From Candidatus Saganbacteria bacterium (lineage in GTDB: Bacteria > Margulisbacteria > WOR-1 > XYC2-FULL-46-14 > WPAF01): a stretch of DNA of 64,000 nt. The DNA lies in contig JACRPM010000013.1 of the NCBI GenBank assembly GCA_016223205.1, positions 5,002 to 69,001 of the forward strand. The letters run 5' to 3'. Below the pieces are notes generated by a model. That model did not search any database and was not told the origin of the DNA. It saw only the letters and a program-made list of their open reading frames with translations. A program made the position numbers and the translations under genes. Every line of letters starts with the position of its first letter. The stretch's first letter is position 1. Of this stretch, positions 1,945-25,534 are shown in pieces.

Positions 1945-3320
1945 GTGAAGATCAAAGTCGCATCCGAAGCCGTAAGCGATCGCCGGATAGTCGGCCTGTT
2001 TGAGGGCGAAAAGCAGAAGGACGTTCCGGATTATTTCAAGGGCAAGCTCGGGCAGGTCGAGGTGGTGGGCCAAAAGATCGTGGTGGGGTTGGGAAAGCGC
2101 GAGAAATTCGACCTCGAAGCGGTTAGGACGGCTTCCTCGGCGGCGATAAAAAAGGCCCGGGAGATAAAAGCGGCAACCGTTTCCACGGTGATCTTCCGGG
2201 GACGCGGCCTAAGCCTTTGCGATGCCGCCAAGGCCATAGTAGAGGGCGCAGTGCTGGGTGTCTACCGGTTTGCCGGCTATGCCAAAGAAAAAGAAGAGCC
2301 GGATTTTGCGATCAGCCGGCTGGTCCTTGTTGTAAACGACAAGAAAGATCTCAAATCTGCCGAGAAGGGAGCGGAGCTCGGCCGCATCATCGCCGAGGCC
2401 GAAAATCACGCCCGCGACCTGGTGAACGAGCCCAGCAATAAGCTGACCCCCACGGCTTTCGCCAAGCTGGCGGAGCGCATCGCCAAGATCAACGACCTCA
2501 AATTCACCTCGCTCGATCCCAAAGCCGAAGGCCTGGGAGCCCTGCTGTCGGTAGCCAAGGGCTCCGATGAGCCCCCGCGCCTGGTAATGCTGGAGTACCG
2601 GGGCGATCCAAAGTCCAAAGAAAAGATCGCGCTCATCGGCAAGGGCATCACTTTTGATTCGGGCGGCATTTCGCTCAAGCCCAGCAAGAAGATGTACGAA
2701 ATGAAGTGCGATATGGCGGGGGCGGCGGCGGTGCTGGGGGTGATGAGCCTGCTCAACGACCTTAGGCCCAAAAAGAACGTGATCGGGGTAATTCCCCTGA
2801 CCGAGAACATGCCCTCGGGGCACGCCACCAAGCCGGGGGATGTGGTAACCTCCCTTTCCGGTTTGACCGTTGAGATCATCAACACCGATGCCGAGGGCCG
2901 CCTGATACTGGCCGATGCCGTGACGTACGCCAAAAACTTAGGCGCCACCAAACTGGTGGATATCGCCACCCTGACCGGGGGCTGTATCGTGGCGTTGGGC
3001 GACGATGCCACCGGGGTCATCGGCAACAACCAAAAGCTGATCGACCAGATCGTTGAGACCGGCAATGCCTGCGGGCAGAAGATGTGGCAGCTGCCGCTTT
3101 ATGACGAATTCAAGCAGAGCTTAAAAAGCAAGCTGGCCGATATCAAGAATTCTTCCGAGACCGGCAAGGCCCAACCCTCGACCGGCGCCGCCTTTATCGC
3201 CAAATTCGTGGGAGATACCCCCTGGGCGCACCTCGATATCGCCGGCACCGCCTTTTTGGACAAGGAGCACGGGTACCTGCCGGAGGGCGCCACCGGAGTG
3301 CCGGTCCGCACGCTCATCGA

Positions 3321-7433: not shown

Positions 7434-8278
7434 TGGACACCAAAACCAAAGAAAAAATAGCATTTATCATCCTGCTTATCGCTACCATACTCGTAGTAAC
7501 TCCGGTGGCGCTGATCATGCTGTTGGTGCTCATAAACGGGCTCCCGGCGCTGACCCCCGAATTTATTTTCGGCTCGCCGCGCGAAGGCATGCGGGCCGGG
7601 GGGATCTTTCCGGCGATCGTCGGCACTTTGTATCTGACGCTGGGGACCGCGGTCTTCTCCATTCCATTGGGGATACTGGCGGCGATCTATTTAAACGAAT
7701 ACGCCGCCCGCAACTGGCTCACGCGCACCATTGAGCTGGCCATCATCAACCTGGCCGGAGTGCCATCGATCGTCTACGGCCTGTTCGGCCTGGGATTGTT
7801 CGTCACCTTCCTCAATTTCGGCGCCTCGATCCTTTCGGGGTCGTTGACCTTGGCGATCATGACGCTGCCGGTCATTATCACCGCCACGCGGGAGGCCTTA
7901 AACTCCGTGCCCCGCTCTTTCCGCGAGGTCAGCTTTTCTTTGGGAGCATCGCGCTGGCAGACCGTGCGGCACGTGGTACTGCCCAACGCCATACCCGGGA
8001 TATTGACCGGCACCATACTGGGGCTTTCACGGGCGGCGGGTGAGACCGCCCCGATCCTCTTTACCGTAGCCGCCTTCTATCTGCCCCGGCTGCCGCAATC
8101 GGTCTACGACCAGGCCATGGCCCTGCCGTACCATATATATGTCCTCTCCACCCAGGTGCCCAATGTCTCGGTCAAGGTCCAGTACGGCACCGTGCTGGTA
8201 TTGGTGCTCTTGATCTTTGTCCTCAACTTGGCCGCTTCGGTTTTGCGGACCAGGTTCCGCCGGAGAAAAACATGGTAA
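7433..8278 (+). CDS. pstA: phosphate ABC transporter permease PstA
   Basis: Second permease; start overlaps the pstC stop. Confidence 0.85.
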   Translation: MDTKTKEKIAFIILLIATILVVTPVALIMLLVLINGLPALTPEFIFGSPREGMRAGGIFPAIVGTLYLTLGTAVFSIPLGILAAIYLNEYAARNWLTRTIELAIINLAGVPSIVYGLFGLGLFVTFLNFGASILSGSLTLAIMTLPVIITATREALNSVPRSFREVSFSLGASRWQTVRHVVLPNAIPGILTGTILGLSRAAGETAPILFTVAAFYLPRLPQSVYDQAMALPYHIYVLSTQVPNVSVKVQYGTVLVLVLLIFVLNLAASVLRTRFRRRKTW

Positions 8279-13963: not shown

Positions 13964-14942
13964 CCGGGATCCCGACTGGGCGGGTTTTTTCAGGCAAGTG
14001 GCAGCCCTTTTTAACGCCGGTCTTTCGCTATCTAAGATATTGGAATTGCTTGAAGGGAAGATCCAAGGTCTTGACCTGAAAAAAATAAGGTCGGGACTGG
14101 AGCAGGGCGGGGGACTGGCCGAGAGCTTGGGGTCATTGGGGCTCGAAAGATCCCTGCAAAACCTGGTTTCTGTGGGCGAAAGGTCGGGGGATCTGGGTGG
14201 GGTCTTAGACCGCGCGGCTGATCTTCTGGATAAAAGGCAAAGCTTCAGGAGAAACCTCCGGCAAGCCCTGACCTATCCCGCTTTTATCCTGATCGCCTGT
14301 TCTTTTTCGATCTTGGGGCTTTTCGTTTTTATTCTGCCGGTTTTTGCATCGATGTTTTCCGACTTTAACTATTCCCTTCCCCTTATCACCCGGGTGCTTA
14401 TCGGATTGCCAAATTATTGGCCGGTTATGCTTTCGGGCCTGGCTTTGCTTATTTGGTTCGCCATAAAGATCAAGACCAGCGACCGGCTAAAACACAAATT
14501 ACCGGTTTTTAACCAGATCCATCGCCATACCCAGGTCTCTTATTTTGCCCGGACCCTGGGATCACAGATCAAGAGCGGCATCTCGATACTGAACGCCCTG
14601 GAGCTTACGGCATCCGGCGCCGATCTTATCTATCGGAATGCCATAAACGATATTAAGCTCCGGGTCGAGAACGGGGAAAAACTAGCTTCCGCCTTATCTT
14701 CTTTTCCCGCGCTTTTCCCCCATACTTTCGATCAAATGGTCGCGGTAGGGGAAGAGACCGGGTCATTGGACACCCTGCTATTGCGCGCCGCCGATTATTA
14801 TGAGAGCGAAGTGGAACAAGCGGTAAAGAGGGCCGCGCTTTTGATCGAACCGGCATCGACTTTGGCCGTGGGATTGATAGTGGGGGTGGTCGCGTTCGCC
14901 ATGATAATGCCGTTGTTTTCCATAATGAATTCGTTATTATAA
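13938..14942 (+). CDS. gspF: type II secretion system F / PilC-family inner-membrane platform protein
   Basis: Two T2SSF repeats and three TM segments. The N-terminus is short; start assigned to ATG 13938, not the track's 13860 whose N-terminus looks out-of-frame. Confidence 0.6.
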   Translation: MRRNFLRSNRDPDWAGFFRQVAALFNAGLSLSKILELLEGKIQGLDLKKIRSGLEQGGGLAESLGSLGLERSLQNLVSVGERSGDLGGVLDRAADLLDKRQSFRRNLRQALTYPAFILIACSFSILGLFVFILPVFASMFSDFNYSLPLITRVLIGLPNYWPVMLSGLALLIWFAIKIKTSDRLKHKLPVFNQIHRHTQVSYFARTLGSQIKSGISILNALELTASGADLIYRNAINDIKLRVENGEKLASALSSFPALFPHTFDQMVAVGEETGSLDTLLLRAADYYESEVEQAVKRAALLIEPASTLAVGLIVGVVAFAMIMPLFSIMNSLL

Positions 14943-14954
14943 GGAGGATATATC

Positions 14955-15365
14955 ATGAAAAGAAAAGGATTCACGCTGATCGAGATCCTGGTCGTGGTGG
15001 GAATAATAGGTTTATTGGCGGTATTTTTGGTGCCCAATCTGCTGGGAGCGCAGGACCGGGCTAAGGAGACGGCGGTGAAAGCGGTGATGCATTCGCTCCA
15101 GCTGGCGGTCGAGTCCTACAATATGGAAAACGAGAGCTACCCGGTGGCGCGGGGAGCGGCAGTCGAGAGTTTGTGCAAGAATTATCTTTTGGTCGGCGGT
15201 TATGTGGGCTCGGTCCCCAAAAATCCCTTCACGGGCAAGGAATACAAGGACGCGGACGTCGCGGGAAAGATAATTTACGATTATAATGACGTCGAAGGAA
15301 GATATACTTTAACCGGATATAAGAGAAATGGAACTTCGAAAATACTCGAGCTTTCTAATATGTAG
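14955..15365 (+). CDS. gspG: prepilin-type N-terminal cleavage/methylation pseudopilin
   Basis: KGFTLIEILVVVGIIGLLA class III signal peptide. Confidence 0.8.
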   Translation: MKRKGFTLIEILVVVGIIGLLAVFLVPNLLGAQDRAKETAVKAVMHSLQLAVESYNMENESYPVARGAAVESLCKNYLLVGGYVGSVPKNPFTGKEYKDADVAGKIIYDYNDVEGRYTLTGYKRNGTSKILELSNM

Positions 15366-16863
15366 CTTATTGCTGATAGCTTCGGCCCAGGCGCTGGATT
15401 TTGACCCGCAGGGCAAGCTCATCTTATCGCTGGGCGGTGAAGTCTCGGTTTTAAACCCCATCCTCTCGACCGATACTTCATCGGGCGCAGTAGAGGGAGT
15501 CATTTTCACGGGGATGACCAAGGTCAACGAGAAGCTTGAAGTCATACCCGATCTCGCCCGATCCTGGAAGATATCACCAGACGGTAAGCTCTGGACGTTC
15601 TTTTTGCGTCGCGATGTAAAGTGGCACGACGGCCGGCCTTTCACCGCGGAGGATGTCAAATTCACCTTCGATTCCATCTTAAATCCCAAAGTCAACTCCG
15701 TCCGCCGCAGTGATTTTATAATTGATGGAAAACCCATCCAATTCAAAGTTATTGATAAATTCACCCTGCAAGCGATACTGCCCAAGCCCTTTGCCCCCTT
15801 CCTGGTGCGCTCGGGGATGAGCGTGATACCAAAACATCTCCTGTCCGGCAAGGATATCAATACCGCGGATTTCAACCGCAAGCCCATCGGGACCGGTCCT
15901 TTTAAATTTGCCGAGTGGAAGACCGGGGATTTTGTCCGGGTGGTGCGCAACGACAAATATTACGACGGCCGGCCTCGTCTGGCCGAGATCCTCTTTAAGA
16001 TCATCCCCGATGAGAACGCAACCCTGGTGGCGCTCGAAGCCGGGGAGATCGATTCGGCCGGTATCCCGCCCAAAGATCTTTCGCGCATGAAGAAGCTTAA
16101 GGGATTGAGCATATACGAATACGACGCCCTGCTTTATACCTATTTGGGATTGAATATGGATAAACCATATTTTAGGGATAAAAGAGTAAGGCAGGCGCTG
16201 GCCTATGCCACCAACAAGAAACAGCTGGTTTCTTTGATATTAAAAGGATTGGGCTCCGCGGCTTATTGTCCCTCGGCGCCTATTTCGTGGGCCTATTCCA
16301 ACGATGTGGAGAAATATCCTTATGATCCAGAAAAAGCGAAAAAACTCCTGAAAGCAGCGGGCTTTGAGAAGCTGGAGTTCACCTGCTTGGTCAATCAGGG
16401 CAATAAAGAACGTGAAAAGGCGGCCATAGTTCTTCAACAGCAATTCAAAAAAGTCGGAGTGAAGATGAATATCCGGGTTTTGGAATGGTCGGCCATGCTT
16501 AAGCTTATCAACAAGCCCACGGCCCCCAAGGATTTTGACGCGATGATCATCGGCTGGTCGCTGGGGCTCGATCCCGACAATTATTCCATCTGGCACAGCT
16601 CCCAATTCCCCCGGGGCTTTAATTTCATCCATTACCAGAATCCCGAAGTGGATAAATTACTCGAAGCCGGCCGCACCACCATGGAAAAAGCCAAACGCAA
16701 AGTCATCTATGCCAAACTGAACCGCCTCATTTCCGCAGACCAGCCATATGTTTTCCTCTGGTATCCTAAGGTGGTCACCGGGGTGAGCGATAAGGTGGGT
16801 GGGTTATCAAAACCGGGCCCGGCCGGATTGTTCCTCAATATCGAAAAGGTCTATAAAAAGTAA
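15328..16863 (+). CDS. oppA: ABC transporter substrate-binding protein, peptide/nickel family (SBP_bac_5)
   Basis: Signal peptide plus family-5 SBP sequence; cognate permeases and ATPases lie 3.2 kb downstream. Confidence 0.8.
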   Translation: MELRKYSSFLICSLLLIASAQALDFDPQGKLILSLGGEVSVLNPILSTDTSSGAVEGVIFTGMTKVNEKLEVIPDLARSWKISPDGKLWTFFLRRDVKWHDGRPFTAEDVKFTFDSILNPKVNSVRRSDFIIDGKPIQFKVIDKFTLQAILPKPFAPFLVRSGMSVIPKHLLSGKDINTADFNRKPIGTGPFKFAEWKTGDFVRVVRNDKYYDGRPRLAEILFKIIPDENATLVALEAGEIDSAGIPPKDLSRMKKLKGLSIYEYDALLYTYLGLNMDKPYFRDKRVRQALAYATNKKQLVSLILKGLGSAAYCPSAPISWAYSNDVEKYPYDPEKAKKLLKAAGFEKLEFTCLVNQGNKEREKAAIVLQQQFKKVGVKMNIRVLEWSAMLKLINKPTAPKDFDAMIIGWSLGLDPDNYSIWHSSQFPRGFNFIHYQNPEVDKLLEAGRTTMEKAKRKVIYAKLNRLISADQPYVFLWYPKVVTGVSDKVGGLSKPGPAGLFLNIEKVYKK

Positions 16864-16910
16864 CTGAAATTTCCCAAAACCCCAGCCGATATTAACCCGG
16901 AGCGATCCAG
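16864..16910 (+). promoter_or_regulatory. promoter-like CTGAAA-N18-GATATT followed by conserved 17-nt leader AACCCGGAGCGATCCAG
   Basis: Identical -35 box and leader recur at 17490-17536 in front of the next gene. Confidence 0.4.
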
Positions 16911-16923
16911 AAGGGAGAAAGAA

Positions 16924-17319
16924 ATGACAGTTAGAATGGCGCGAATGAGGTTTGCCCCCATCAGCGGAGACGGCGGAAAAGACTACCGGAGGGACAATCT
17001 TAAGGCATTGGCAGGCCAAGGGCTTAGCGTTACCCCGAACTTTTTAAGCCAAATCAAAGGAACCAACCGAATTGCCCAATTCTTTAGGATTATGGATCTT
17101 AAGGGCGTTCTGGGGGGGCGGACCGGCACGGTAGAAACGCTGAACCGACTTTTCCGCCGGTGGTACGTACTGCAGACCCACAGCAATCCGGACCCGTTTG
17201 GTGCGCAACGCCCGGGAGAAGATTGGTTTTGCCTTTCAGTAATGGCCAAAGGACCGGCCAAGAAACTTGTAAAAACGATCGATCTGGGAGCATGGTATTA
17301 CAGGCGGATCTGGAGATAG
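16924..17319 (+). CDS. hypothetical protein (island gene 1)
   Basis: ORF with gggag RBS and shared promoter/leader; no recognisable domain. Confidence 0.4.
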   Translation: MTVRMARMRFAPISGDGGKDYRRDNLKALAGQGLSVTPNFLSQIKGTNRIAQFFRIMDLKGVLGGRTGTVETLNRLFRRWYVLQTHSNPDPFGAQRPGEDWFCLSVMAKGPAKKLVKTIDLGAWYYRRIWR

Positions 17320-17489
17320 CGGCCGCAGTTAGGTAGGCAATCAAGGTGCATTGCTGTCGGGTGTTATTGGTTAGCGTTAGGCGAAACGTTTGGCGTCGTG
17401 GGTGCCGCGTGACGCATCTCACCCGACGATTCGCCTGACACAACCGCTACCGTCCAACCCCTTACCTTCCTAAAATATTTCAAATATTA

Positions 17490-17536
17490 CTGAAATTTCC
17501 TATGGGCATAACAGATAATAACCCGGAGCGATCCAG
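17490..17536 (+). promoter_or_regulatory. promoter-like CTGAAA-N18-GATAAT plus conserved leader AACCCGGAGCGATCCAG (copy 2)
   Basis: Second copy of the module; ggagg RBS follows. Confidence 0.4.
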
Positions 17537-17548
17537 GGAGGATTTAAT

Positions 17549-18190
17549 ATGGTTGAGTTAGGAAGATTGGAAAGTTCGATGGCGCGGTTTACCGGGGTGG
17601 GAGCATTACGGAGAGGGGTGGGACTGTGCAGGGCAGATGGCAGTGGATCGGTAAACACTCCACCACAAATAAATGTTCTTGGGCTGCTTATTATGAGACC
17701 AACTGGAAAGTGGGAAGTTTCCCCCGGCAATTTATTTGTTAAATTTAAAGATCGGCAGGGTGAAGCTGGAGTTATCATTGAAAATAGATATTGGAAAAGT
17801 GTGCCAAGAAATATAATGGAGAGGATATTAAAAGTCGATTCATTAATGTGGGATATAATAAGTGGAAAAGACATGATCCATTATTATCTTCCAGAGAACA
17901 TCCCTAGCATGAGAATGTTCGGGGTCGACCTCTTTCCAATCCTAAATCTAAGAGATATTGATAAGGGCGATTCGCCCGAGAAAGATGTTTTAGAAATACT
18001 CACAGCTTTAGGCGCAAGAGATGGCCGTAAGATAGTCGAGGGGGTGCCAAGCTCTTTTAGCAAATATGGGCATTCTTTTTCAGAGATCGGCCAACTCAAA
18101 CAAAGTGTTATGAGCACCTGGGCTAAACATGGTTCCTCAGCAAACAGTGTGCTAAGACGGAACCTGCGACTAAACGTCGCGGTTCCTTAA
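17549..18190 (+). CDS. hypothetical protein (island gene 2), lower GC
   Basis: 213-aa ORF with shared promoter/leader; GC is visibly lower; no recognisable domain. Confidence 0.45.
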   Translation: MVELGRLESSMARFTGVGALRRGVGLCRADGSGSVNTPPQINVLGLLIMRPTGKWEVSPGNLFVKFKDRQGEAGVIIENRYWKSVPRNIMERILKVDSLMWDIISGKDMIHYYLPENIPSMRMFGVDLFPILNLRDIDKGDSPEKDVLEILTALGARDGRKIVEGVPSSFSKYGHSFSEIGQLKQSVMSTWAKHGSSANSVLRRNLRLNVAVP

Positions 18191-18213
18191 ATCTATTGAT
18201 TTTAATCAGGAAA

Positions 18214-18253
18214 CCGCGAAGTTCATTCGCGGGTTTCCTGATTTCTCATGTCA
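18214..18253 (+). terminator. hairpin terminator after island gene 2
   Basis: aatcaggaaaccgcgaa-gttca-ttcgcgggtttcctgatt, a 17-bp stem with one bulge. Confidence 0.45.
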
Positions 18254-18324
18254 TTTTTTCTGTTAACCTGACCGCAATACTTGATAATCATATCCTGGGC
18301 GAAAAATATTATATAGCGGAAGAA

Positions 18325-18449
18325 TAGGGGCTTTTCAAGAGAAAGCGGAAAAGATTTCGGCTTTGATGTAAAAGCCCTCAAAAGGTTGGATAAGATCATG
18401 TTTCCCAATATATCAGCGGCCTTTTTAACGCTAAGCCCTCGGAGAAATC
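18325..18449. repeat. 125-bp direct repeat R, copy 1
   Basis: Near-identical to 19784-19907, with two mismatches; contains the internal inverted repeat agggctttt...aaaagccct. Confidence 0.8.
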
Positions 18450-18487
18450 CTGCATGCCTTGATGATATTGTTTGACATCGTGGTAGT

Positions 18488-19147
18488 TCATTTCCTAAAG
18501 AATATAACCGGTAAACTTTGCCCTTCGACAAACACATAATGCAGTTCCTTGAAACGCGCGCCGATTTTATTGAATCTCAAAGGCAAAGCCCAGGTATCCC
18601 GCATCGGCCTGCTTTCCACAAAATAACCGCCGGGCTTTATTATCCGATAAATGTCGCTTAGCGCCCGGTCAGCGTTGGTATGGGTTGCTCCGGTTAAGAG
18701 ATCATCAGTGTAGGCATTATATTCGCGGGAATACTGTCCCAAAAAGTAGATCATCTCCTTGTTCCAGAAAACCAGATCGATCCTTTCATCGGGGAAGGGC
18801 AGGGTGCGGATATTGGCCCGAACGACGGCCACATGGGGATATCTGGTCTGCACCCGCTGTAAGCCCTCTTGTCTTTGGTCGACTGCTAAAGAAGTTATCC
18901 CCGGGACGTTTGGCAGAAAAGAATGGTCCAGGCATCCCAACTCGACCGCGGTCTTAATGTTGCCGGCCCAGGAATAAAAGACCCCTAAAAAAGCGGAAGG
19001 GGTTTGTTCGAAAAGTCGGGGATCGGTCAGGGGAGAGCCCGACACCCGGAGGTATTTCCCCTTGGGAGCAACCCGACCTTTCACTCCTCTTATGATCTCC
19101 CGGATAAAAGCGTCCGGTTTTCCGCGAACATGCATTACGATATCCAT
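18488..19147 (-). CDS. class I SAM-dependent methyltransferase-like protein (degenerate motif I)
   Basis: Motif I-like VELGCLDHS, acidic motif II ERIDLVF and IIKPGGYFV motif. Confidence 0.5.
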   Translation of the reverse strand: MDIVMHVRGKPDAFIREIIRGVKGRVAPKGKYLRVSGSPLTDPRLFEQTPSAFLGVFYSWAGNIKTAVELGCLDHSFLPNVPGITSLAVDQRQEGLQRVQTRYPHVAVVRANIRTLPFPDERIDLVFWNKEMIYFLGQYSREYNAYTDDLLTGATHTNADRALSDIYRIIKPGGYFVESRPMRDTWALPLRFNKIGARFKELHYVFVEGQSLPVIFFRK

Positions 19148-19184
19148 GGCTGTTTAATTATCGGGCAAAGCCGTTAAGAATTTC

Positions 19185-19220
19185 ATTGACAATTTGCGCA
19201 TCTGGGGCGGGTATTATAGG
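19185..19220 (+). promoter_or_regulatory. sigma70-like promoter module TTGACA-N20-TATTAT, duplicate of oppB promoter
   Basis: ttgacaatttgcgcatctggggcgggtattatag nearly identical to 20081-20114. Confidence 0.35.
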
Positions 19221-19226
19221 AAAGGG

Positions 19227-19778
19227 CTATAGAATCTTTTTAAGGGTATTCCAGATTCTTAAATCTTCGGCCTCGTCCGATAGCTTTTGAGCCCAAGAAT
19301 CAAGATATTTCCTATCAAGCTTGCTGCGGTGCCTTTCGATAATCGATTTAATATCCAAAATATCCCTTTCCCGACCGGGGATGAGCTTTAGTAAAATCAG
19401 GTCTTCGGGAGAAGGAATGTTGACCTTTTTTCCCAGCAGAGTTATTTTCATTTTGCGTTGAAAGGCGGAATCTTCGAAGTCCGTCGACGAAACAATAAAA
19501 TCAACCCAGAGCTCTTCAAAAGATATCCTAAACGCCCCTTTGAGTTCGAGGTCCTTCTGTATAGCTGTTTGGTTAATATCAAATCCCGCTTTTTTCATTT
19601 TAGACAAAAGCGCGATAACGGAAGATTTGGGAATAAAGACAATTAGATCGATGTCCTGCGTCATGCGGGGCTCGCCCAAAACCCCCACGGCCAGCCCCCC
19701 GATCAAAAGATAAGGCGTTTTTTCTTTTTCCAGTAAGGTTATCGTTTTTTGGAAAAGTTTATCGAGCGAGCTTGGCAT
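19227..19778 (-). CDS. nucleotidyltransferase-fold protein (GG...DIDL motif)
   Basis: N-terminal LIGGLAVGVLGEPRMTQDIDLIV is the minimal NTase signature (GS/GG...D.D); C-terminal helical domain. Confidence 0.55.
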   Translation of the reverse strand: MPSSLDKLFQKTITLLEKEKTPYLLIGGLAVGVLGEPRMTQDIDLIVFIPKSSVIALLSKMKKAGFDINQTAIQKDLELKGAFRISFEELWVDFIVSSTDFEDSAFQRKMKITLLGKKVNIPSPEDLILLKLIPGRERDILDIKSIIERHRSKLDRKYLDSWAQKLSDEAEDLRIWNTLKKIL

Positions 19779-19783
19779 GTTTT

Positions 19784-19907
19784 AGGGATTTTTCAAGAGA
19801 AAGCGGAAAAGATTTCGGCTTTGATGTAAAAGCCCTCAAAAGGTTGGATGAGATCATGTTTCCCAATATATCAGCGGCCTTTTTAATGCTAAGCCCTCGG
19901 AGAAATC
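19784..19907. repeat. 125-bp direct repeat R, copy 2
   Basis: See 18325-18449. Confidence 0.8.
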
Positions 19908-20080
19908 TGCTCCTTTTCTTCTCGTTTTCCTTAAGGAATTTATTGATATTTCTTATCATATGTTTATAATTATACCACAAATGAAGACCATATATGCCCT
20001 TTTCGCTTCATAGCCCTGTCGCCTTGTCACCCTCATAGCCCTGCCTGCCCTGAATGCCTTTATAGCCTAGTTTTAAACAA

Positions 20081-20114
20081 GTGAAATTTGCGCATCTGGG
20101 TGCGGTATTATAGA
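20081..20114 (+). promoter_or_regulatory. promoter of oppBCDF (GTGAAA-N18-GTATTA/TATTAT)
   Basis: Immediately upstream of the oppB GTG start; duplicated at 19185. Confidence 0.4.
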
Positions 20115-20125
20115 ATACCGGCAAG

Positions 20126-21023
<898 letters not shown>

Positions 21024-21043
<20 letters not shown>

Positions 21044-21839
21044 CAAATTACAAATGACAAATGTTGGTATTTTTATTATATTGATCATGGTAGTTGCGGC
21101 AATATTCGCCCCAATGATCGCGCCATATGATCCGTCTGAAATCGTGGAAGACAATACGCTGGCACCGTCTATTAAACACCTATTCGGGACCGATGACCTG
21201 GGGCGCGATATCTTCAGCCGGGCGCTTTACGGGGCGCGTATCTCCTTAACGGTAGGTCTGGTGGCGGTAACCATCGCAGTCCTGATCGGCACCCTTTTCG
21301 GCGCGATCGCCGGTTATTACGGCGGCCTGGTGGATTCTGCGATCATGCGCTCGGTGGACGTGATGCTGGCCTTTCCCTCGATCTTCCTGATCCTGGCTAT
21401 CCAGGTGATGCTCACCCCCAATATATATAATGTAATGATCGTGATCGGGCTGACCTCATGGATGGGGGTGGCGCGGCTGGTGAGGGGAGAGTTCCTCCGC
21501 ATTCGCGAATTGCAGTACGTGGAAGCAGCGCGGGCTATCGGCGCCTCCGATCTGCGCATCATTTTCCGCCATATTTTGCCCAATGCTATGGCTCCCATCA
21601 TCGTGGCGGGGACGCTGGGGATGGCAGGAGCCATCTTGACCGAATCGGCCCTATCTTTCCTGGGGCTGGGAGTCCAGCCGCCCATGCCCAGCTGGGGCAA
21701 CATGCTGATGGATTCCCAGGCCTATATGCGCGATGCGCCCTGGATGGCGATCATCCCCGGTATTTTGATCCTGCTGGCGGTCCTTTCGCTTTATTTTGTG
21801 GGCGAGGGATTGAGGGAGAGGTTGGATGTTAGAGGTTAA
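21024..21839 (+). CDS. oppC: ABC transporter permease, OppC/DppC family
   Basis: BPD permease; start probably ATG 21024 rather than the track's 20991. Confidence 0.8.
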
Positions 21840-22614
21840 AGGATTATCTACGAGCTTCTATCAAGATGAGGTTGAGGTAAAAGCTGTGAATGACGTGAGT
21901 TTATCGGTAGCGTCGGGCGAATCGTTGGGCGTCGTGGGGGAGTCGGGGTCGGGTAAATCCACGCTGGCTTTATCCCTCTTGCGGCTGATCTACCCGCCGG
22001 GCAAAATTGTATCCGGAGAAGTTCTTTTTGATGGACAAGACCTCTTGAAGCTGTCGGAGCCGGAAATGATCAAGGTCCGAGGGGCCAGGATCTCCATGAT
22101 CTTCCAGGACCCCTTCACCTCGCTCAATCCGGTATTCACCGTGGGCTACCAGATCGCGGAGGCGATAGCGCTCCATCAGGGGGCAAACAGGAAACAGGCC
22201 TGGAGCAAGGCCGTTGAAATGCTCGAAACAGTCCGTATTCCGCATCCCGCACTCCGCATTCGTGATTATCCCCACCAATTTTCCGGCGGGATGCGGCAGA
22301 GGGTGATGATCGCGATGGCGTTGGCCTGCCGGCCCGAGATATTGATCGCGGACGAGCCCACCACCGCGCTCGATGTCACCATCCAGGCGGAGATACTCAA
22401 ATTGCTTAAGGACCTGCAAAAGGAGCTTAAGCTTTCCATTATATATATCACCCACAATTTCGGCATCGTGAAGCAGATGTGCGAGCGGGCGGTGGTTATG
22501 CATTTGGGTAAAGTGGTGGAAGAGGGCCGGATACAGGAAATTATGGATAATCCTCGGGAAGCTTATACCAAGAGTTTGATCGACAGTTTAAAGGTGTTGA
22601 ATGATAGAAGTTAA
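21826..22614 (+). CDS. oppD: ABC transporter ATP-binding protein (OppD-like)
   Basis: Walker [10 protein letters not shown] and FSGGMRQRV signature. Confidence 0.85.
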
Positions 22615-23320
22615 AGAGCTGAAGAAATATTTTGGAGTGGTCCGGGCGGTCGATGGCGTGAGTTTGGCGGTAGAGTCGGGCGAATCGTTGGGCCTAGTAG
22701 GGGAGTCCGGGTCGGGCAAATCCACTTTGGCCAGATTAATACTTAAGCTCATTGAACCCGACAGCGGTACCATCAACTATGACGGGATCAAGAATATCCG
22801 CAAAGATTGTCAGATCGTGTTCCAAGACCCGCAGACCTCGCTCAATCCGCGGATCAGGATCGGAGAGGCGATCGGGGAGCCGATGGCGATCCATAAGATA
22901 GTAGAAAATAGAAAATCGAAAATAGAAAATAGGATTAAGGATCTGCTGGACATGGTCAAATTGCCTGCAGAATATGCAAACCGCTACCCTCACGCCCTGT
23001 CGGGAGGGGAAAGGCAAAGGGTGGGGATTGCCCGCGCTTTAGCGGGGGAGCCACGTTTTTTGGTGCTGGACGAGCCGGTCTCGTCGCTTGACGTCACCAT
23101 CCAGGTCCAAATACTGGATCTCCTCAAAGAATTAAAGCGGAAGCTCAATTTGACCTATCTTTTCATCGCCCATGACCTCTCGACAATCGGCTATATGTGT
23201 GATAAAATAGCGGTAATGAGAGCCGGGAAGATCCTGGAAATAGGGACAACAGAGCTTATCCTTTCTGCTCCGCAAGACCCCTATACCAGGCAACTCCTAG
23301 AGTCCTCACCTAAACTATAA
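22601..23320 (+). CDS. oppF: ABC transporter ATP-binding protein (OppF-like)
   Basis: Walker [10 protein letters not shown] and LSGGERQRV; carries the heptamer tandem repeat at 22902-22930. Confidence 0.85.
   Translation: MIEVKELKKYFGVVRAVDGVSLAVESGESLGLVGESGSGKSTLARLILKLIEPDSGTINYDGIKNIRKDCQIVFQDPQTSLNPRIRIGEAIGEPMAIHKIVENRKSKIENRIKDLLDMVKLPAEYANRYPHALSGGERQRVGIARALAGEPRFLVLDEPVSSLDVTIQVQILDLLKELKRKLNLTYLFIAHDLSTIGYMCDKIAVMRAGKILEIGTTELILSAPQDPYTRQLLESSPKL
22902..22930 (+). repeat. intragenic tandem heptamer (TAGAAAA/TCGAAAA x4)
   Basis: tagaaaatagaaaatcgaaaatagaaaat inside oppF. Confidence 0.6.
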
Positions 23321-23372
23321 ATCGGGTGAAATTTTATAAATAGCGCCCCGATATAAGGACGGTGGAGAATAT

Positions 23373-23573
23373 ATGAAAGAATTCCGCTGCAAATTTTGTC
23401 ACCGGCTTTTGGCCAAGGTAGGCGAGGCCAAGAAGGTGGAGATCAAGTGTCCCAAGTGCAAGACCATGAATCTCTTCCGCGATGACGAGGTGCTGGTGGT
23501 GGAGATCGACGAGACCCACCTGCGCAAGCAGATCCTAAAAGGCAAGATCACCTACAGCGTTATCAATAATTGA
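23373..23573 (+). CDS. Com-like zinc-ribbon protein (phage Mu Com family), paralogue 1
   Basis: MKEFRCKFCHRLLAKV...IKCPKCKT, a four-Cys zinc ribbon resembling Mu Com. Confidence 0.65.
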   Translation: MKEFRCKFCHRLLAKVGEAKKVEIKCPKCKTMNLFRDDEVLVVEIDETHLRKQILKGKITYSVINN

Positions 23574-23617
23574 GTGAAATCCCGGGCTCGAAACGTCGAT
23601 AAATATAAGGACACCAT

Positions 23618-23824
23618 ATGAGCGAAGAGAACATGAAAGAATTCCGCTGCAAGTTCTGCCACCGGCTTTTAGCCAAGGTGGAAGACGCCCTCTCGGTTGA
23701 GATCAAGTGCCCCAAATGCAAGACCTTAAACCTCTATAACAGTGAAGAGATCGTGATCGTCCAGATGGACGAAGATTACCTCAAGCGCAAATTCAACAAA
23801 AACCTCGAAGCCGACCCCGTCTAG
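23618..23824 (+). CDS. Com-like zinc-ribbon protein, paralogue 2
   Basis: Same CxxC...CxxC core, about 70% identical to paralogue 1. Confidence 0.65.
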   Translation: MSEENMKEFRCKFCHRLLAKVEDALSVEIKCPKCKTLNLYNSEEIVIVQMDEDYLKRKFNKNLEADPV

Positions 23825-23989
23825 TAAGTTCAAAAATTACCTGAAATTTTTCTAAACACCCCCCGATATATTTCCGGAGACTCCGAGATGCTAAAAAGAT
23901 CCGAGAAGCCCCGACCAGTAGGGGCTTTTTTATTTGGGGGTGAGATCGAAGAAAAAAAGTGTCGATTCAATATAAAGGAGGAAAAGAAA

Positions 23990-25534
23990 ATGCCAGTAGC
24001 AGTAGCAGAAAGAACAGGGATTGGAAGGAGATTAATTCATTCGTCGGATATGGTTCGTACCCATCAAACCAGAAGTGAACTAATAGGAGCACTAAGAGGA
24101 GCCGGTATCAGCAATCAAAGATTGGTTATACATGATCGAGCAATGTTTACGCAATTTGACCTGCCAAGATTGGCAGCCAATGCGGCTGATTTTGGAGAAA
24201 AAAGCGCATCTAAAAGCGTGCAAGCGCTGTCATCTTGGATCATTGGCGAGGCCGCACCTCAATTAGGTGTCCATTTGGCTTCTCCCCAGGAAATATATGT
24301 GGCCATCGCGGAAGAAAAGATCGTAAGGACCATGTCTTTCCCGGCGGTCAATATCCGCGCCAATACCTTAGATACTGCCCGGGCACTTTTCAGGGCGGCC
24401 ATAGATAATAAGGTAGGGGCCTTGATAGTGGAAATTGCCCGTTCTGAAACCGGCTATACCAATCAAACTCCCCGCGAGTTCGCAGCGGTAGTCAAGGCGG
24501 CGGCCATGATGGAAGGATTCGCCGGGCCGCTCTTCCTGCAGGGAGATCACGTTCAGTTGGACGCCAAGAAATTCGCGAAAGGTCCTGAAGCAGCCGCCAA
24601 GGAAATCGCGGCCCACAGCGCGCTGGTGCGGGCTTTCTTGGAGGAAGGATTCGGCTCGCTCGACCTGGATATGTCACCATTCGAAAAAAGGACGCAAAAA
24701 GAACTCACTCATGATGAGCAGCAAGCTGATAACGCCCGCTTGACCGTGGAAAAGATCCAGGAAGTAAGACAGAGCGAAACTCAGCTCGGGATTCCCTGGA
24801 CCACTCTTTTGGGAGGGGAAACAGGAGAAGTCGGCAAGTTCAATACCTCTAGGGAAGACTTAGAAGCCTATGCCAGAGGGATTCAAGCGAATATGGAAAG
24901 ATTGGGTATTGATCCCAAACAGGGGATCCGCAAGATCGCAGTGAATGACGGGACTTCTCACGGTGGAGTTCCTACTCCCGACGGCAAAGTCACTGCAGAT
25001 GTGAACATTGAATTCCCGATCTTGAGAATGGCTACAGATTATGGCCGGCAATTTGGTTGGGCGGGGTCGGTCCAGCATGGTGCTTCTACACTTGGCAATG
25101 AAAATTTCTGTCTTTTCCCCCAATACCGAGCAGTAGAAGCGCATCTGGCTACTGGCTTTCAGAATAGTACTCTCGATAATGGTGCTTATCGGATAGAGAA
25201 AATGCAAGCCCGCTTAGAGAGATATCTGGTTGACAAACACCTTGCTGAATGGGAGTGGGAGAAAAAAGGCACGACCATGGCGCAATTCCTCTACTCGACC
25301 CGTAAGAAAGCGACCGGGCCGTTCAAGTTCGAGCTCTGGACCATGCCGGAAGAAGTTAGGGCGGCGGTAGCAGAAGAGCTCTATAACCAATTCTCCTTCT
25401 TGTTTGAACAATTAGGAGTCAAGGATACGGTAGAGCTGGTGGCGCAAAATACCACCATTCATGAGTTCCACAGGCCCTATCCGGCAGAAGATCAGGAAGT
25501 GGCTGCCCTGGGCCCGTCTGATACGGCGGACTAA
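23990..25534 (+). CDS. class II fructose-bisphosphate aldolase-family protein (long form)
   Basis: Matches FbaA motifs: FPAVNIRANTLDTA, LQGDH (HTDH), IAVNDGTSHGG (FGNVHG) and VQHGAS (HGGSG). Extra N- and C-terminal extensions. Start taken at ATG 23990 after aaaggagg rather than the track's 23888. Confidence 0.6.
   Translation: MPVAVAERTGIGRRLIHSSDMVRTHQTRSELIGALRGAGISNQRLVIHDRAMFTQFDLPRLAANAADFGEKSASKSVQALSSWIIGEAAPQLGVHLASPQEIYVAIAEEKIVRTMSFPAVNIRANTLDTARALFRAAIDNKVGALIVEIARSETGYTNQTPREFAAVVKAAAMMEGFAGPLFLQGDHVQLDAKKFAKGPEAAAKEIAAHSALVRAFLEEGFGSLDLDMSPFEKRTQKELTHDEQQADNARLTVEKIQEVRQSETQLGIPWTTLLGGETGEVGKFNTSREDLEAYARGIQANMERLGIDPKQGIRKIAVNDGTSHGGVPTPDGKVTADVNIEFPILRMATDYGRQFGWAGSVQHGASTLGNENFCLFPQYRAVEAHLATGFQNSTLDNGAYRIEKMQARLERYLVDKHLAEWEWEKKGTTMAQFLYSTRKKATGPFKFELWTMPEEVRAAVAEELYNQFSFLFEQLGVKDTVELVAQNTTIHEFHRPYPAEDQEVAALGPSDTAD

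Follow-up and report, generated by a model that had tools for sequence, protein, structure and literature searches.

In a 64,000-nt stretch of a Candidatus Saganbacteria genome (assembly GCA_016223205.1, contig JACRPM010000013.1, positions 5,002 to 69,001 of the forward strand; hereafter the window), two long and nearly identical direct repeats bracket a nucleotidyltransferase (NTase) gene and a methyltransferase (MTase) gene. The question raised by this locus is what these repeats are, and whether they delimit a two-gene cassette, as had been proposed from the letters of the window alone (the original prediction). Here, the repeats were identified as two copies of the central coding part of a small open reading frame (sORF) that lies directly upstream of the NTase gene. 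In the reading that we regard as probable, one copy is part of an intact pair of sORF and NTase resembling the toxin-antitoxin (TA) system MenAT1, the other copy is a decaying fragment left by a local rearrangement, and the adjacency of the NTase and MTase genes is accidental. Read in this way, the repeat would be an ordinary rearrangement scar that needs no new biology.

The repeat spans 125 nt, with copy 1 (R1) at 18325-18449 and copy 2 (R2) at 19783-19907, i.e., starting one position before the 19784 given originally, and with a start-to-start distance of 1,458 nt. The two copies agree at 121/125 positions (97% identity) and have a 60-nt perfect stretch in common. They differ at four positions (18330/18331 GC vs AT, 18392 A vs G, and 18429 C vs T) instead of the two previously counted, a number that holds only for the 118-nt core (18332-18449). 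A 60-nt core of the repeat was found exactly twice in the window with zero occurrences expected from shuffled sequences, so the long, near-identical direct repeat is real, and it is also, as had been argued, too long for a transposon target duplication. Since R1 and R2 are 3.2% apart while the orthologous sORF and NTase DNA of the nearest relatives differs by 17-25% (nucleotide level), the duplication is fairly recent, in agreement with the original prediction.

Copy counts refer to the 64-kb window; the GTDB representative and JGI metagenome collections, which do not include the source genome and its closest relatives, were searched with a degenerate 80-nt pattern (validated; fitting R1, R2, and the ortholog of one relative, locus L003), and returned 0 matches. 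The recurrence at many unrelated loci that the original prediction had set against itself was not found in the window or in these collections. The inverted repeat seen inside R1 had pointed to an internal hairpin and could be taken as a sign of a dispersed element of the repetitive extragenic palindromic or miniature inverted-repeat transposable type, or of a structured regulatory RNA. The left arm GGGCTTTT is indeed present in R1, but R2 reads GGGATTTT, and on both strands the folds of the two copies were no more stable than those of shuffled sequence (z −0.88 to +0.26). In addition, Rfam gave no match at E ≤ 1 across 16700-20300 on both strands, and the substitutions among sORF orthologs follow codon positions. 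With two copies in the window and none in both collections, an element of this kind is refuted for practical purposes.

On the minus strand, small open reading frames (ORFs) read R1 and R2 in the same frame. R2 (19783..19907, minus strand) corresponds in frame to codons ~18-59 of the intact sORF of 66 amino acids (aa; 19759..19959, minus strand) and is the source copy, while R1 (18325..18449, minus strand) is a truncated internal copy without the first ~17 and last ~8 codons. R1 matches sORF residues ~18-59 only, with unrelated sequence on both sides, and sensitive local alignments of its flanks to the rest of the TA module did not exceed those of shuffled sequences. It is located 38 nt past the MTase stop codon and ~81-84 nt from a strong hairpin at 18204..18243. 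The statement that the repeats flank exactly two minus-strand genes thus holds for the bracketing of NTase and MTase, but a third gene had been missed, as R2 lies inside the 66-aa ORF (19959..19759). No paralogs of the NTase, sORF or MTase genes were detected elsewhere in the window.

The sORF is a conserved gene. All close NTase relatives (75-79% identity; loci L001-L005 and L024) carry a called 66-aa gene upstream with the same 20-nt overlap between the end of the small gene and the NTase start that is present in the window, and the encoded small proteins are 62-85% identical to the sORF of the window. Homologous small ORFs of 64-76 aa also precede NTases of 39-50% identity (L014-L017, from other phyla; FCPU426 and other metagenome-assembled genomes), so that the sORF-NTase pair was recovered at at least 10 loci in several phyla. 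Pairwise pN/pS (nonsynonymous vs synonymous changes) among the close sORF orthologs ranged from 0.16 to 0.38, and the sORF is therefore under purifying selection. An extended −10 element, TGGTATAAT, precedes the sORF at 19977..19969 and is kept as TGATAAAAT in L001, L003, and L004. The sORF product had no match in Pfam, NCBIfam or PADLOC, and the L003 protein was the sole match in a homolog search. Its AlphaFold2 (AF2) model is all-helical with three helices, and its confidence is modest because the prediction was built on two sequences.

Regarding the sORF promoter region, some further observations were made. The window carries ~54 additional nt upstream of this promoter compared to L003, and within these, two direct TCATAGCCCTG repeats (20008-20018 and 20033-20043, plus strand) were found 25 nt apart together with a degenerate third copy; they are possible operator-like sites. 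GGGCTATAG is also found at 19222-19230, in overlap with the NTase stop codon. Antisense in the 5′ end of the sORF, a near-consensus sigma-70-like promoter is present at 19943-19970 on the plus strand (TTGATA-16 nt-TATAAT, 11/12 matches) and faces the permease gene oppB. It could drive oppBCDF, which are cut off from the upstream substrate-binding-protein gene by the minus-strand genes and a strong hairpin, and would in that case oppose the sORF promoter head-on.

The NTase (19227..19778, minus strand; 183 aa) was assigned to the DUF6036 family (Pfam, E 6e-9, 36.3 bits), followed by DUF2204 (E 5e-6), and NCBIfam gave no significant call. Homologs numbered 146, and a search of the family profile against PDB matched MenT1 (8AN4) with an E-value of 2e-12 over profile positions 6-150; the single sequence alone found MenT1 at E 8e-4. 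The AF2 model (mean predicted local distance difference test score, pLDDT, 95.7) was searched against PDB with Foldseek, where the top five hits were MenT1 or MenAT1 structures (8AN5, 8AN4, 8RR5; template modeling (TM) scores 0.62-0.69, E 9e-10 to 1e-7), followed by LnuA, ANT(2″)-Ia, JHP933, and TglT/MenT3. Residues T40, D42, D44, and K131 were invariant in 51 homologs, and the loop EPRMTQDID aligns with EPRFTRDVD of MenT1, by which T40 corresponds to T39, D42 to D41, and K131 to K137 (chain numbering +1). The candidate counterparts of MenT1 D152, namely D139 and D142, fall outside the sequence alignment. MenT1 adds CMP to tRNA 3′ ends, its T39 is the phospho-acceptor, and roles of T39, D41, and K137 have been described (PMC10435456, PMC11375011). 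The gene of MenA1, a helical antitoxin of 68 aa, is located directly upstream of that of MenT1 (PMC10435456); MenA1 both obstructs the active sites of two protomers of MenT1 and triggers auto-phosphorylation of T39, for which residues 1-32 suffice (PMC10435456, PMC11375011).

Judged by profile and fold comparison, the NTase is a remote homolog of the tRNA-modifying toxin MenT1 and a putative toxin. Because of this homology and the matching gene architecture, sORF and NTase most likely form a MenAT1-like toxin-antitoxin pair with the sORF product as putative antitoxin. The two overlapping genes would be co-transcribed, the NTase would extend tRNA 3′ ends, and the sORF protein would neutralise the NTase as in MenAT1. 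The earlier view of the NTase as a member of a TA-like module with a partner gene is thus retained, with the 66-aa upstream gene and not the MTase as the partner.

The direction of copying was read from the four differences between R1 and R2. Three of the four are nonsynonymous (I25V, S37L, and S58P) and the fourth is synonymous; at all three nonsynonymous sites R2 keeps the residue conserved in orthologs, with S37 and S58 being invariant in five close sORF orthologs. As all three changes are derived in R1, the copying was from R2 to R1. This pattern is suggestive of R1 having evolved without the constraint that acts on R2, with n = 4 substitutions to judge from. By analogy with MenA1, the missing N-terminal helix argues for R1 being inert and non-functional. 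An uninterrupted ORF of 104 aa (18537..18223) nevertheless runs through R1 in the sORF frame, and R1 could be thought to be part of a functional chimeric gene whose product, an orphan antitoxin-like protein or a decoy, would modulate the NTase, in line with truncated antitoxins that are still able to neutralise the toxin in MenAT1 (PMC10435456). Such a product would, however, be without the helix corresponding to the active part of MenA1 (residues 1-32, by analogy; PMC10435456, PMC11375011), its first 41 residues come from the MTase 3′ end read out of frame, its three amino-acid changes in R1 are all derived and hit otherwise conserved positions, and no such protein was returned by the homolog search. 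We therefore consider a functional chimeric gene very unlikely.

The MTase (18488..19147, minus strand) is a class I S-adenosylmethionine methyltransferase-like protein of 219 aa (Pfam Methyltransf_11, E 1e-9), whose family comprises 6 clusters among 5.8 billion proteins. The glycine motif, previously described as degenerate, reads ELGC[LW]D with E69, G71, and C72 invariant across this small family and is accordingly a family trait instead of decay. The MTase was found without the NTase in L007/L009, L010, and L012, where it occupies the same slot and is convergent with the gene of a substrate-binding protein (SBP); these are all family members for which the genomic context was examined, and all of them occupy the slot between SBP and oppB. 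The NTase was found without the MTase in L001, L003, L004, L024, and L013-L017. In L001, L004, and L024, the sORF-NTase pair is set in unrelated surroundings. The GC content of the MTase gene is host-like (50.6%, window 52%), while that of the TA part is 39-43%, a low value that fits acquisition from elsewhere. Because the MTase family keeps the slot and the MTase gene has host-like GC, and the pair is found in varied contexts and the TA part has low GC, the MTase is interpreted as the slot resident instead of an NTase partner, and sORF and NTase together appear to be a guest that was acquired. On these comparisons of gene neighborhoods, the juxtaposition of NTase and MTase is an accident of rearrangement and not a functional cassette, and the proposed two-gene unit is abandoned, since each gene is found without the other in relatives.

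The same data bear on the idea that the repeats are recombination sites, i.e., att-like ends of a small mobile element or integron-like cassette for site-specific recombination with NTase and MTase as its cargo. It is true that long, near-identical direct repeats bracket exactly these two genes and that the TA module is found in different contexts across genomes. However, the repeat lies within the coding sequence of a conserved gene and has no significant structure, NTase and MTase never occur together in relatives, no further repeat copies exist in the window or either collection, and what is kept across contexts is either the sORF-NTase pair or the MTase by itself, and not the segment from repeat to repeat. 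Moreover, the annotation of the syntenic 16.6-kb neighborhood of L007 (maps to window positions 14663-23996) contains no recombinase, integrase or transposase and holds only PhoU, a tRNA synthetase, TatD, type II secretion system/pilin genes, SBP, OppBCDF, Zn-ribbon proteins, and FBPase. This possibility was therefore largely refuted and is scarcely credible.

The slot itself is the gap between the SBP gene (15328-16863) and oppB (20126-) of an Opp/Dpp peptide-transporter operon, and it was compared between the window and its relatives. Here, D7 denotes the 5′ arm of a leader hairpin of oppB (see below). In L003 (83% nucleotide identity), the order is SBP, NTase (reverse), sORF (reverse), D7, and oppB, with no MTase and with the stop codons of SBP and NTase 4 nt apart. 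In L007/L009 (87%; a 340-kb Margulisiibacteriota contig), SBP is followed by MTase (reverse), a D2-leader with ORF131, D7, and oppB, with no NTase, sORF or repeat, and in L010 and L012 (~70%) the MTase is likewise convergent with SBP. L022 (83%) carries SBP, a hairpin element, two ORF213-type genes, D7, and oppB. The window combines these haplotypes in the order SBP, ORF131, hairpin element, ORF213, hairpin 18204-18243, 84 nt, R1, 38 nt, MTase (reverse), a first D7 copy (D7a), NTase (reverse), sORF with R2 (reverse), a second D7 copy (D7b), and oppB. On the minus strand, the guest block (18241..20084) accordingly reads p, sORF (R2), NTase, D7a, MTase, x, R1, and the 84-nt spacer, as mapped against L003, L007, and L022. 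The segment from repeat to repeat was present at no locus compared, and no "empty" site with a single repeat was found among these relatives. Two further observations concern the gap: its positions 16864-20084 are hypervariable, with four gene contents among relatives whose flanking genes are 83-87% identical, and the side of the MTase on which ORF131 is found differs between the window and L007. The gap between SBP and oppB is a clear rearrangement hotspot, and it illustrates the accumulation of guest genes and local relics in an operon that is conserved otherwise.

D7b (20085-20113), which forms the 5′ arm of the leader hairpin of oppB, is directly upstream of oppB also in L003, L007, and L022. 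Together with its 3′ arm (20085..20136, plus strand), it forms a hairpin that encloses the GTG start codon at 20126 (−26.8 kcal/mol, z −5.08; L003 ortholog at 2100-2165, minus strand, z −3.34). D7a (19190..19219, plus strand), located between the MTase start and the NTase stop, is a dead copy of this 5′ arm and had no structure on its own (z 0.07). The native upstream region of the MTase in L007 reads TTGATAATTTGCGCA, and AATTTGCGCA is common to that region and to D7, so that a 10-nt homology was on offer for the joint between MTase and D7a. D7a is thus a second relic and supports a history of local rearrangement. The leader hairpin itself is two-tiered, with AAGG and the oppB GTG start in the 3′ arm, is conserved at the sequence level in L007 and L022, and may control translation or act as an mRNA-processing element.

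For the origin of R1, we favor a local segmental duplication or rearrangement in this hypervariable gap of the Opp/Dpp operon between SBP and the permease gene, by which sORF codons ~18-59 would have been copied to a position downstream of the resident MTase gene. Two routes both fit: a 1,458-bp tandem duplication with a novel joint between the repeat and x and with later loss of most of the proximal copy, or a templated 125-nt patch inserted during repair. Multi-step event models along both lines (tandem duplication plus deletions; templated patch) each fit parts of the map, and none is uniquely supported. Further candidate remnants near R1 were discarded. These were resemblances of x (18450-18487) to the SBP 3′ end or the sORF 5′ end, and of the 84-nt left flank to D7 or the NTase gene and of 17320-17371 to D7, which had been seen by eye (shuffle p 0.06-0.65 for all of these); a model of x as the tail of a duplicated SBP gene was dropped as well, the underlying resemblances not being above shuffles.

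Whether two copies are present in the organism was assessed with Logan contig L006 (SRR12113407; 1,488 nt, 99.93% identical), which covers 19886..18399. In this contig, the NTase is connected to sequence of the R2 type (AT at 19788/9), and sequence of the R1 type (C at 18429) is connected to the MTase, so that two distinct copies are supported. This support is limited in that the first and last 30 nt of L006 are identical, as a k = 31 graph yields at a repeat, and in that L006 runs on without a break at the fork towards the left flank. A third limit is position 19850, at which L006 has A, the R1 allele, in place of the G of the window; this may be due to bubble collapsing by the assembler or to gene conversion or polymorphism between the copies. 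Exact-protein look-ups of the sORF and ORF213, made for the outer junctions, returned nothing. An assembly artefact, i.e., a duplication that is not in the organism, could be argued for from the source being a metagenome-assembled genome, from 60-nt identical repeats being able to mislead assemblers, and from the outer junctions being without independent confirmation. We judge it highly improbable, as four positions differ between the copies and each copy has its own unique flanks, duplications that arise as artefacts are normally identical, and the contig of a second assembler makes the same two joints.

L006 also bears on models in which the repeats recombine. With a Campbell-type integration or a tandem amplification of the 1,458-bp unit (x, MTase, D7a, NTase, and the repeat), possibly with RecA-dependent loop-out, the identity of the repeat would be undisputed; direct repeats around an insert are the expected product of a single crossover, the joint of R1 and x would be the novel joint of a tandem duplication, and L006 measures exactly 1,458 + 30 nt with identical ends and no break at the left-flank fork. 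Yet a repeat-bounded contig from a k = 31 de Bruijn graph looks alike with or without circles, the assembly of the window has distinct unique flanks on either side, the four copy-specific differences imply that the copies diverged in place, and no empty site is known in the relatives compared. Integration or amplification is hence considered unlikely. Still less weight is given to R1 and R2 as a switch for homologous recombination, in which a crossover in the 60-nt stretch would excise a 1,458-bp circle with NTase and MTase and leave an sORF-derived ORF behind; we hold this to be quite improbable. If true, the cell would gain a safe exit from an addictive module, and circles of this kind, or tandem amplification, in the natural population could be the origin of the circular-looking L006.

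Several points weigh against the reading of an intact MenAT1-like pair beside a decaying fragment. On the side of the TA pair, toxicity, antitoxicity, and the tRNA target are derived by analogy, from homology and gene architecture, and the structure model of the sORF is of modest confidence (pLDDT 68.7). A phmmer search of the sORF against all PDB chains, including the MenA1:MenT1 complex 8AN5, gave nothing below E = 1. The AbiEii/DUF1814 family (PF08843), to which a comparison had been suggested, matched the NTase weakly, but with 16.5 bits against a cut-off of 22.5 bits (E 0.008) it stayed below the threshold, and the AbiEii match in PADLOC (E 0.009) was not significant either. On the side of the repeat, the signal of decay in R1 is statistically weak with four substitutions only, one of these sites (19850) is phased differently in L006, and expression of a chimeric protein from the 104-aa ORF around R1 is possible. 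Finally, an intermediate haplotype was found in no relative. The reading of R2 as part of an intact pair and of R1 as a local relic is nonetheless the one that we regard as probable.

The remaining features of the slot and its surroundings were recorded as follows. The strong hairpin at 18204..18243 (fold z −6.6 on the plus and −7.7 on the minus strand) is located between the convergent ORF213 (plus strand) and the minus-strand guest block and is a putative bidirectional terminator; a simple terminator scan did not flag it, as no T-run is adjacent. A long imperfect hairpin follows ORF131 at 17355-17449 (plus strand) and has a counterpart in L022 (3866-3954) directly past the SBP stop codon. 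These fold with −40.8 and −45.2 kcal/mol, respectively, at z-scores of only −1.25 and −1.96. The arms of the element resemble, in direct and inverted orientation, the Walker-A coding stretches of oppD (21891-21938, 77%) and oppF (22660-22693), and the window hairpin could be an intercistronic stabiliser or an element pairing with the oppD/oppF mRNA.

ORF213 (17549-18190, plus strand) and the two slot genes of L022 (4056-4919 and 5001-5717) have an N-terminal stretch of ~30 aa in common (MVxLxxLESSxARFTGVGAxRRGVGxCRA) and diverge thereafter. ORF213 had 3 homolog clusters among 1.84 billion representatives, one of them being a protein of 807 aa with 11 separate stretches that match residues 10-39; Pfam, NCBIfam, and PADLOC gave no match. 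A leader of ~50 nt, ACTGAAATTTCC...TAACCCGGAGCGATCCAG followed by a ribosome binding site, precedes ORF131, ORF213, and a gene starting near 23888 (window sites 16856-16910, 17482-17536, and 23829-23881); it is also present in L007 (2331-2383 and ~7860-7918) and L022 (3995-4042 and 10164-10212), and looks like a lineage-shared promoter or an element of the 5′ untranslated region. Downstream of oppF, two tandem paralogous small genes (23373-23573 and 23618-23824, plus strand; 66 and 68 aa) share the motif KEFRCKFCHRLLAKV...IKCPKCKT. Both genes are conserved in L007 and L022, where the orthologs are annotated as Zn_ribbon_Com.

In comparison with known systems, R1 resembles gene-fragment duplications and pseudogene relics at bacterial rearrangement junctions, being a sharply bounded, recent internal copy with relaxed constraint that lies beside another relic, D7a, in a stretch where gene order varies among close relatives. 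It is special among ordinary relics in that the fragment stems from a putative antitoxin gene and, together with its parent copy, brackets the toxin gene. For the sORF-NTase pair, the type IV TA/abortive infection system AbiE (AbiEi-AbiEii) has an NTase of the same superfamily, as reflected by the weak AbiEii matches. Unlike AbiE, the partner is a 66-aa protein without a family match and not a winged-helix protein of 200-300 aa (AbiEi/COG5340), and the NTase is ~100 aa shorter than the AbiEii profile models (238 and 310 positions). A module of the MNT-HEPN type is not suggested by the context, where no HEPN match was found with Pfam in the sORF, the MTase or the flanking ORFs, and the neighbors are the MTase and Opp genes.

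The closest likeness is to MenAT1 (Rv0078B-Rv0078A) of Mycobacterium tuberculosis, which is also a two-gene operon of a small helical protein (68 aa, compared to 66 aa here) upstream of a minimal NTase of ~185-195 aa, with a toxin of the MenT-type minimal NTase fold (profile E 2e-12; best TM 0.67-0.69). In contrast to MenT1, the NTase belongs to Pfam DUF6036/DUF2204 and not to DUF1814, and its identity to MenT1 is only ~19%. The sORF is without sequence similarity to MenA1, with which it agrees in size and predicted all-helical nature; MenA antitoxins are known to be diverse (PMC10435456). Unlike MenAT1, the module is hosted by uncultivated Saganbacteria/Margulisiibacteriota, FCPU426, and others, and is known from sequence alone; the searchable literature holds no mention of DUF6036 as a TA component. 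It is plausible that the DUF6036/sORF pair is an uncharacterised relative of MenAT1. As a module conserved across several phyla, the DUF6036 NTase with its upstream partner of ~66 aa is a candidate for another family of NTase toxins that target tRNA and are paired with small helical antitoxins.

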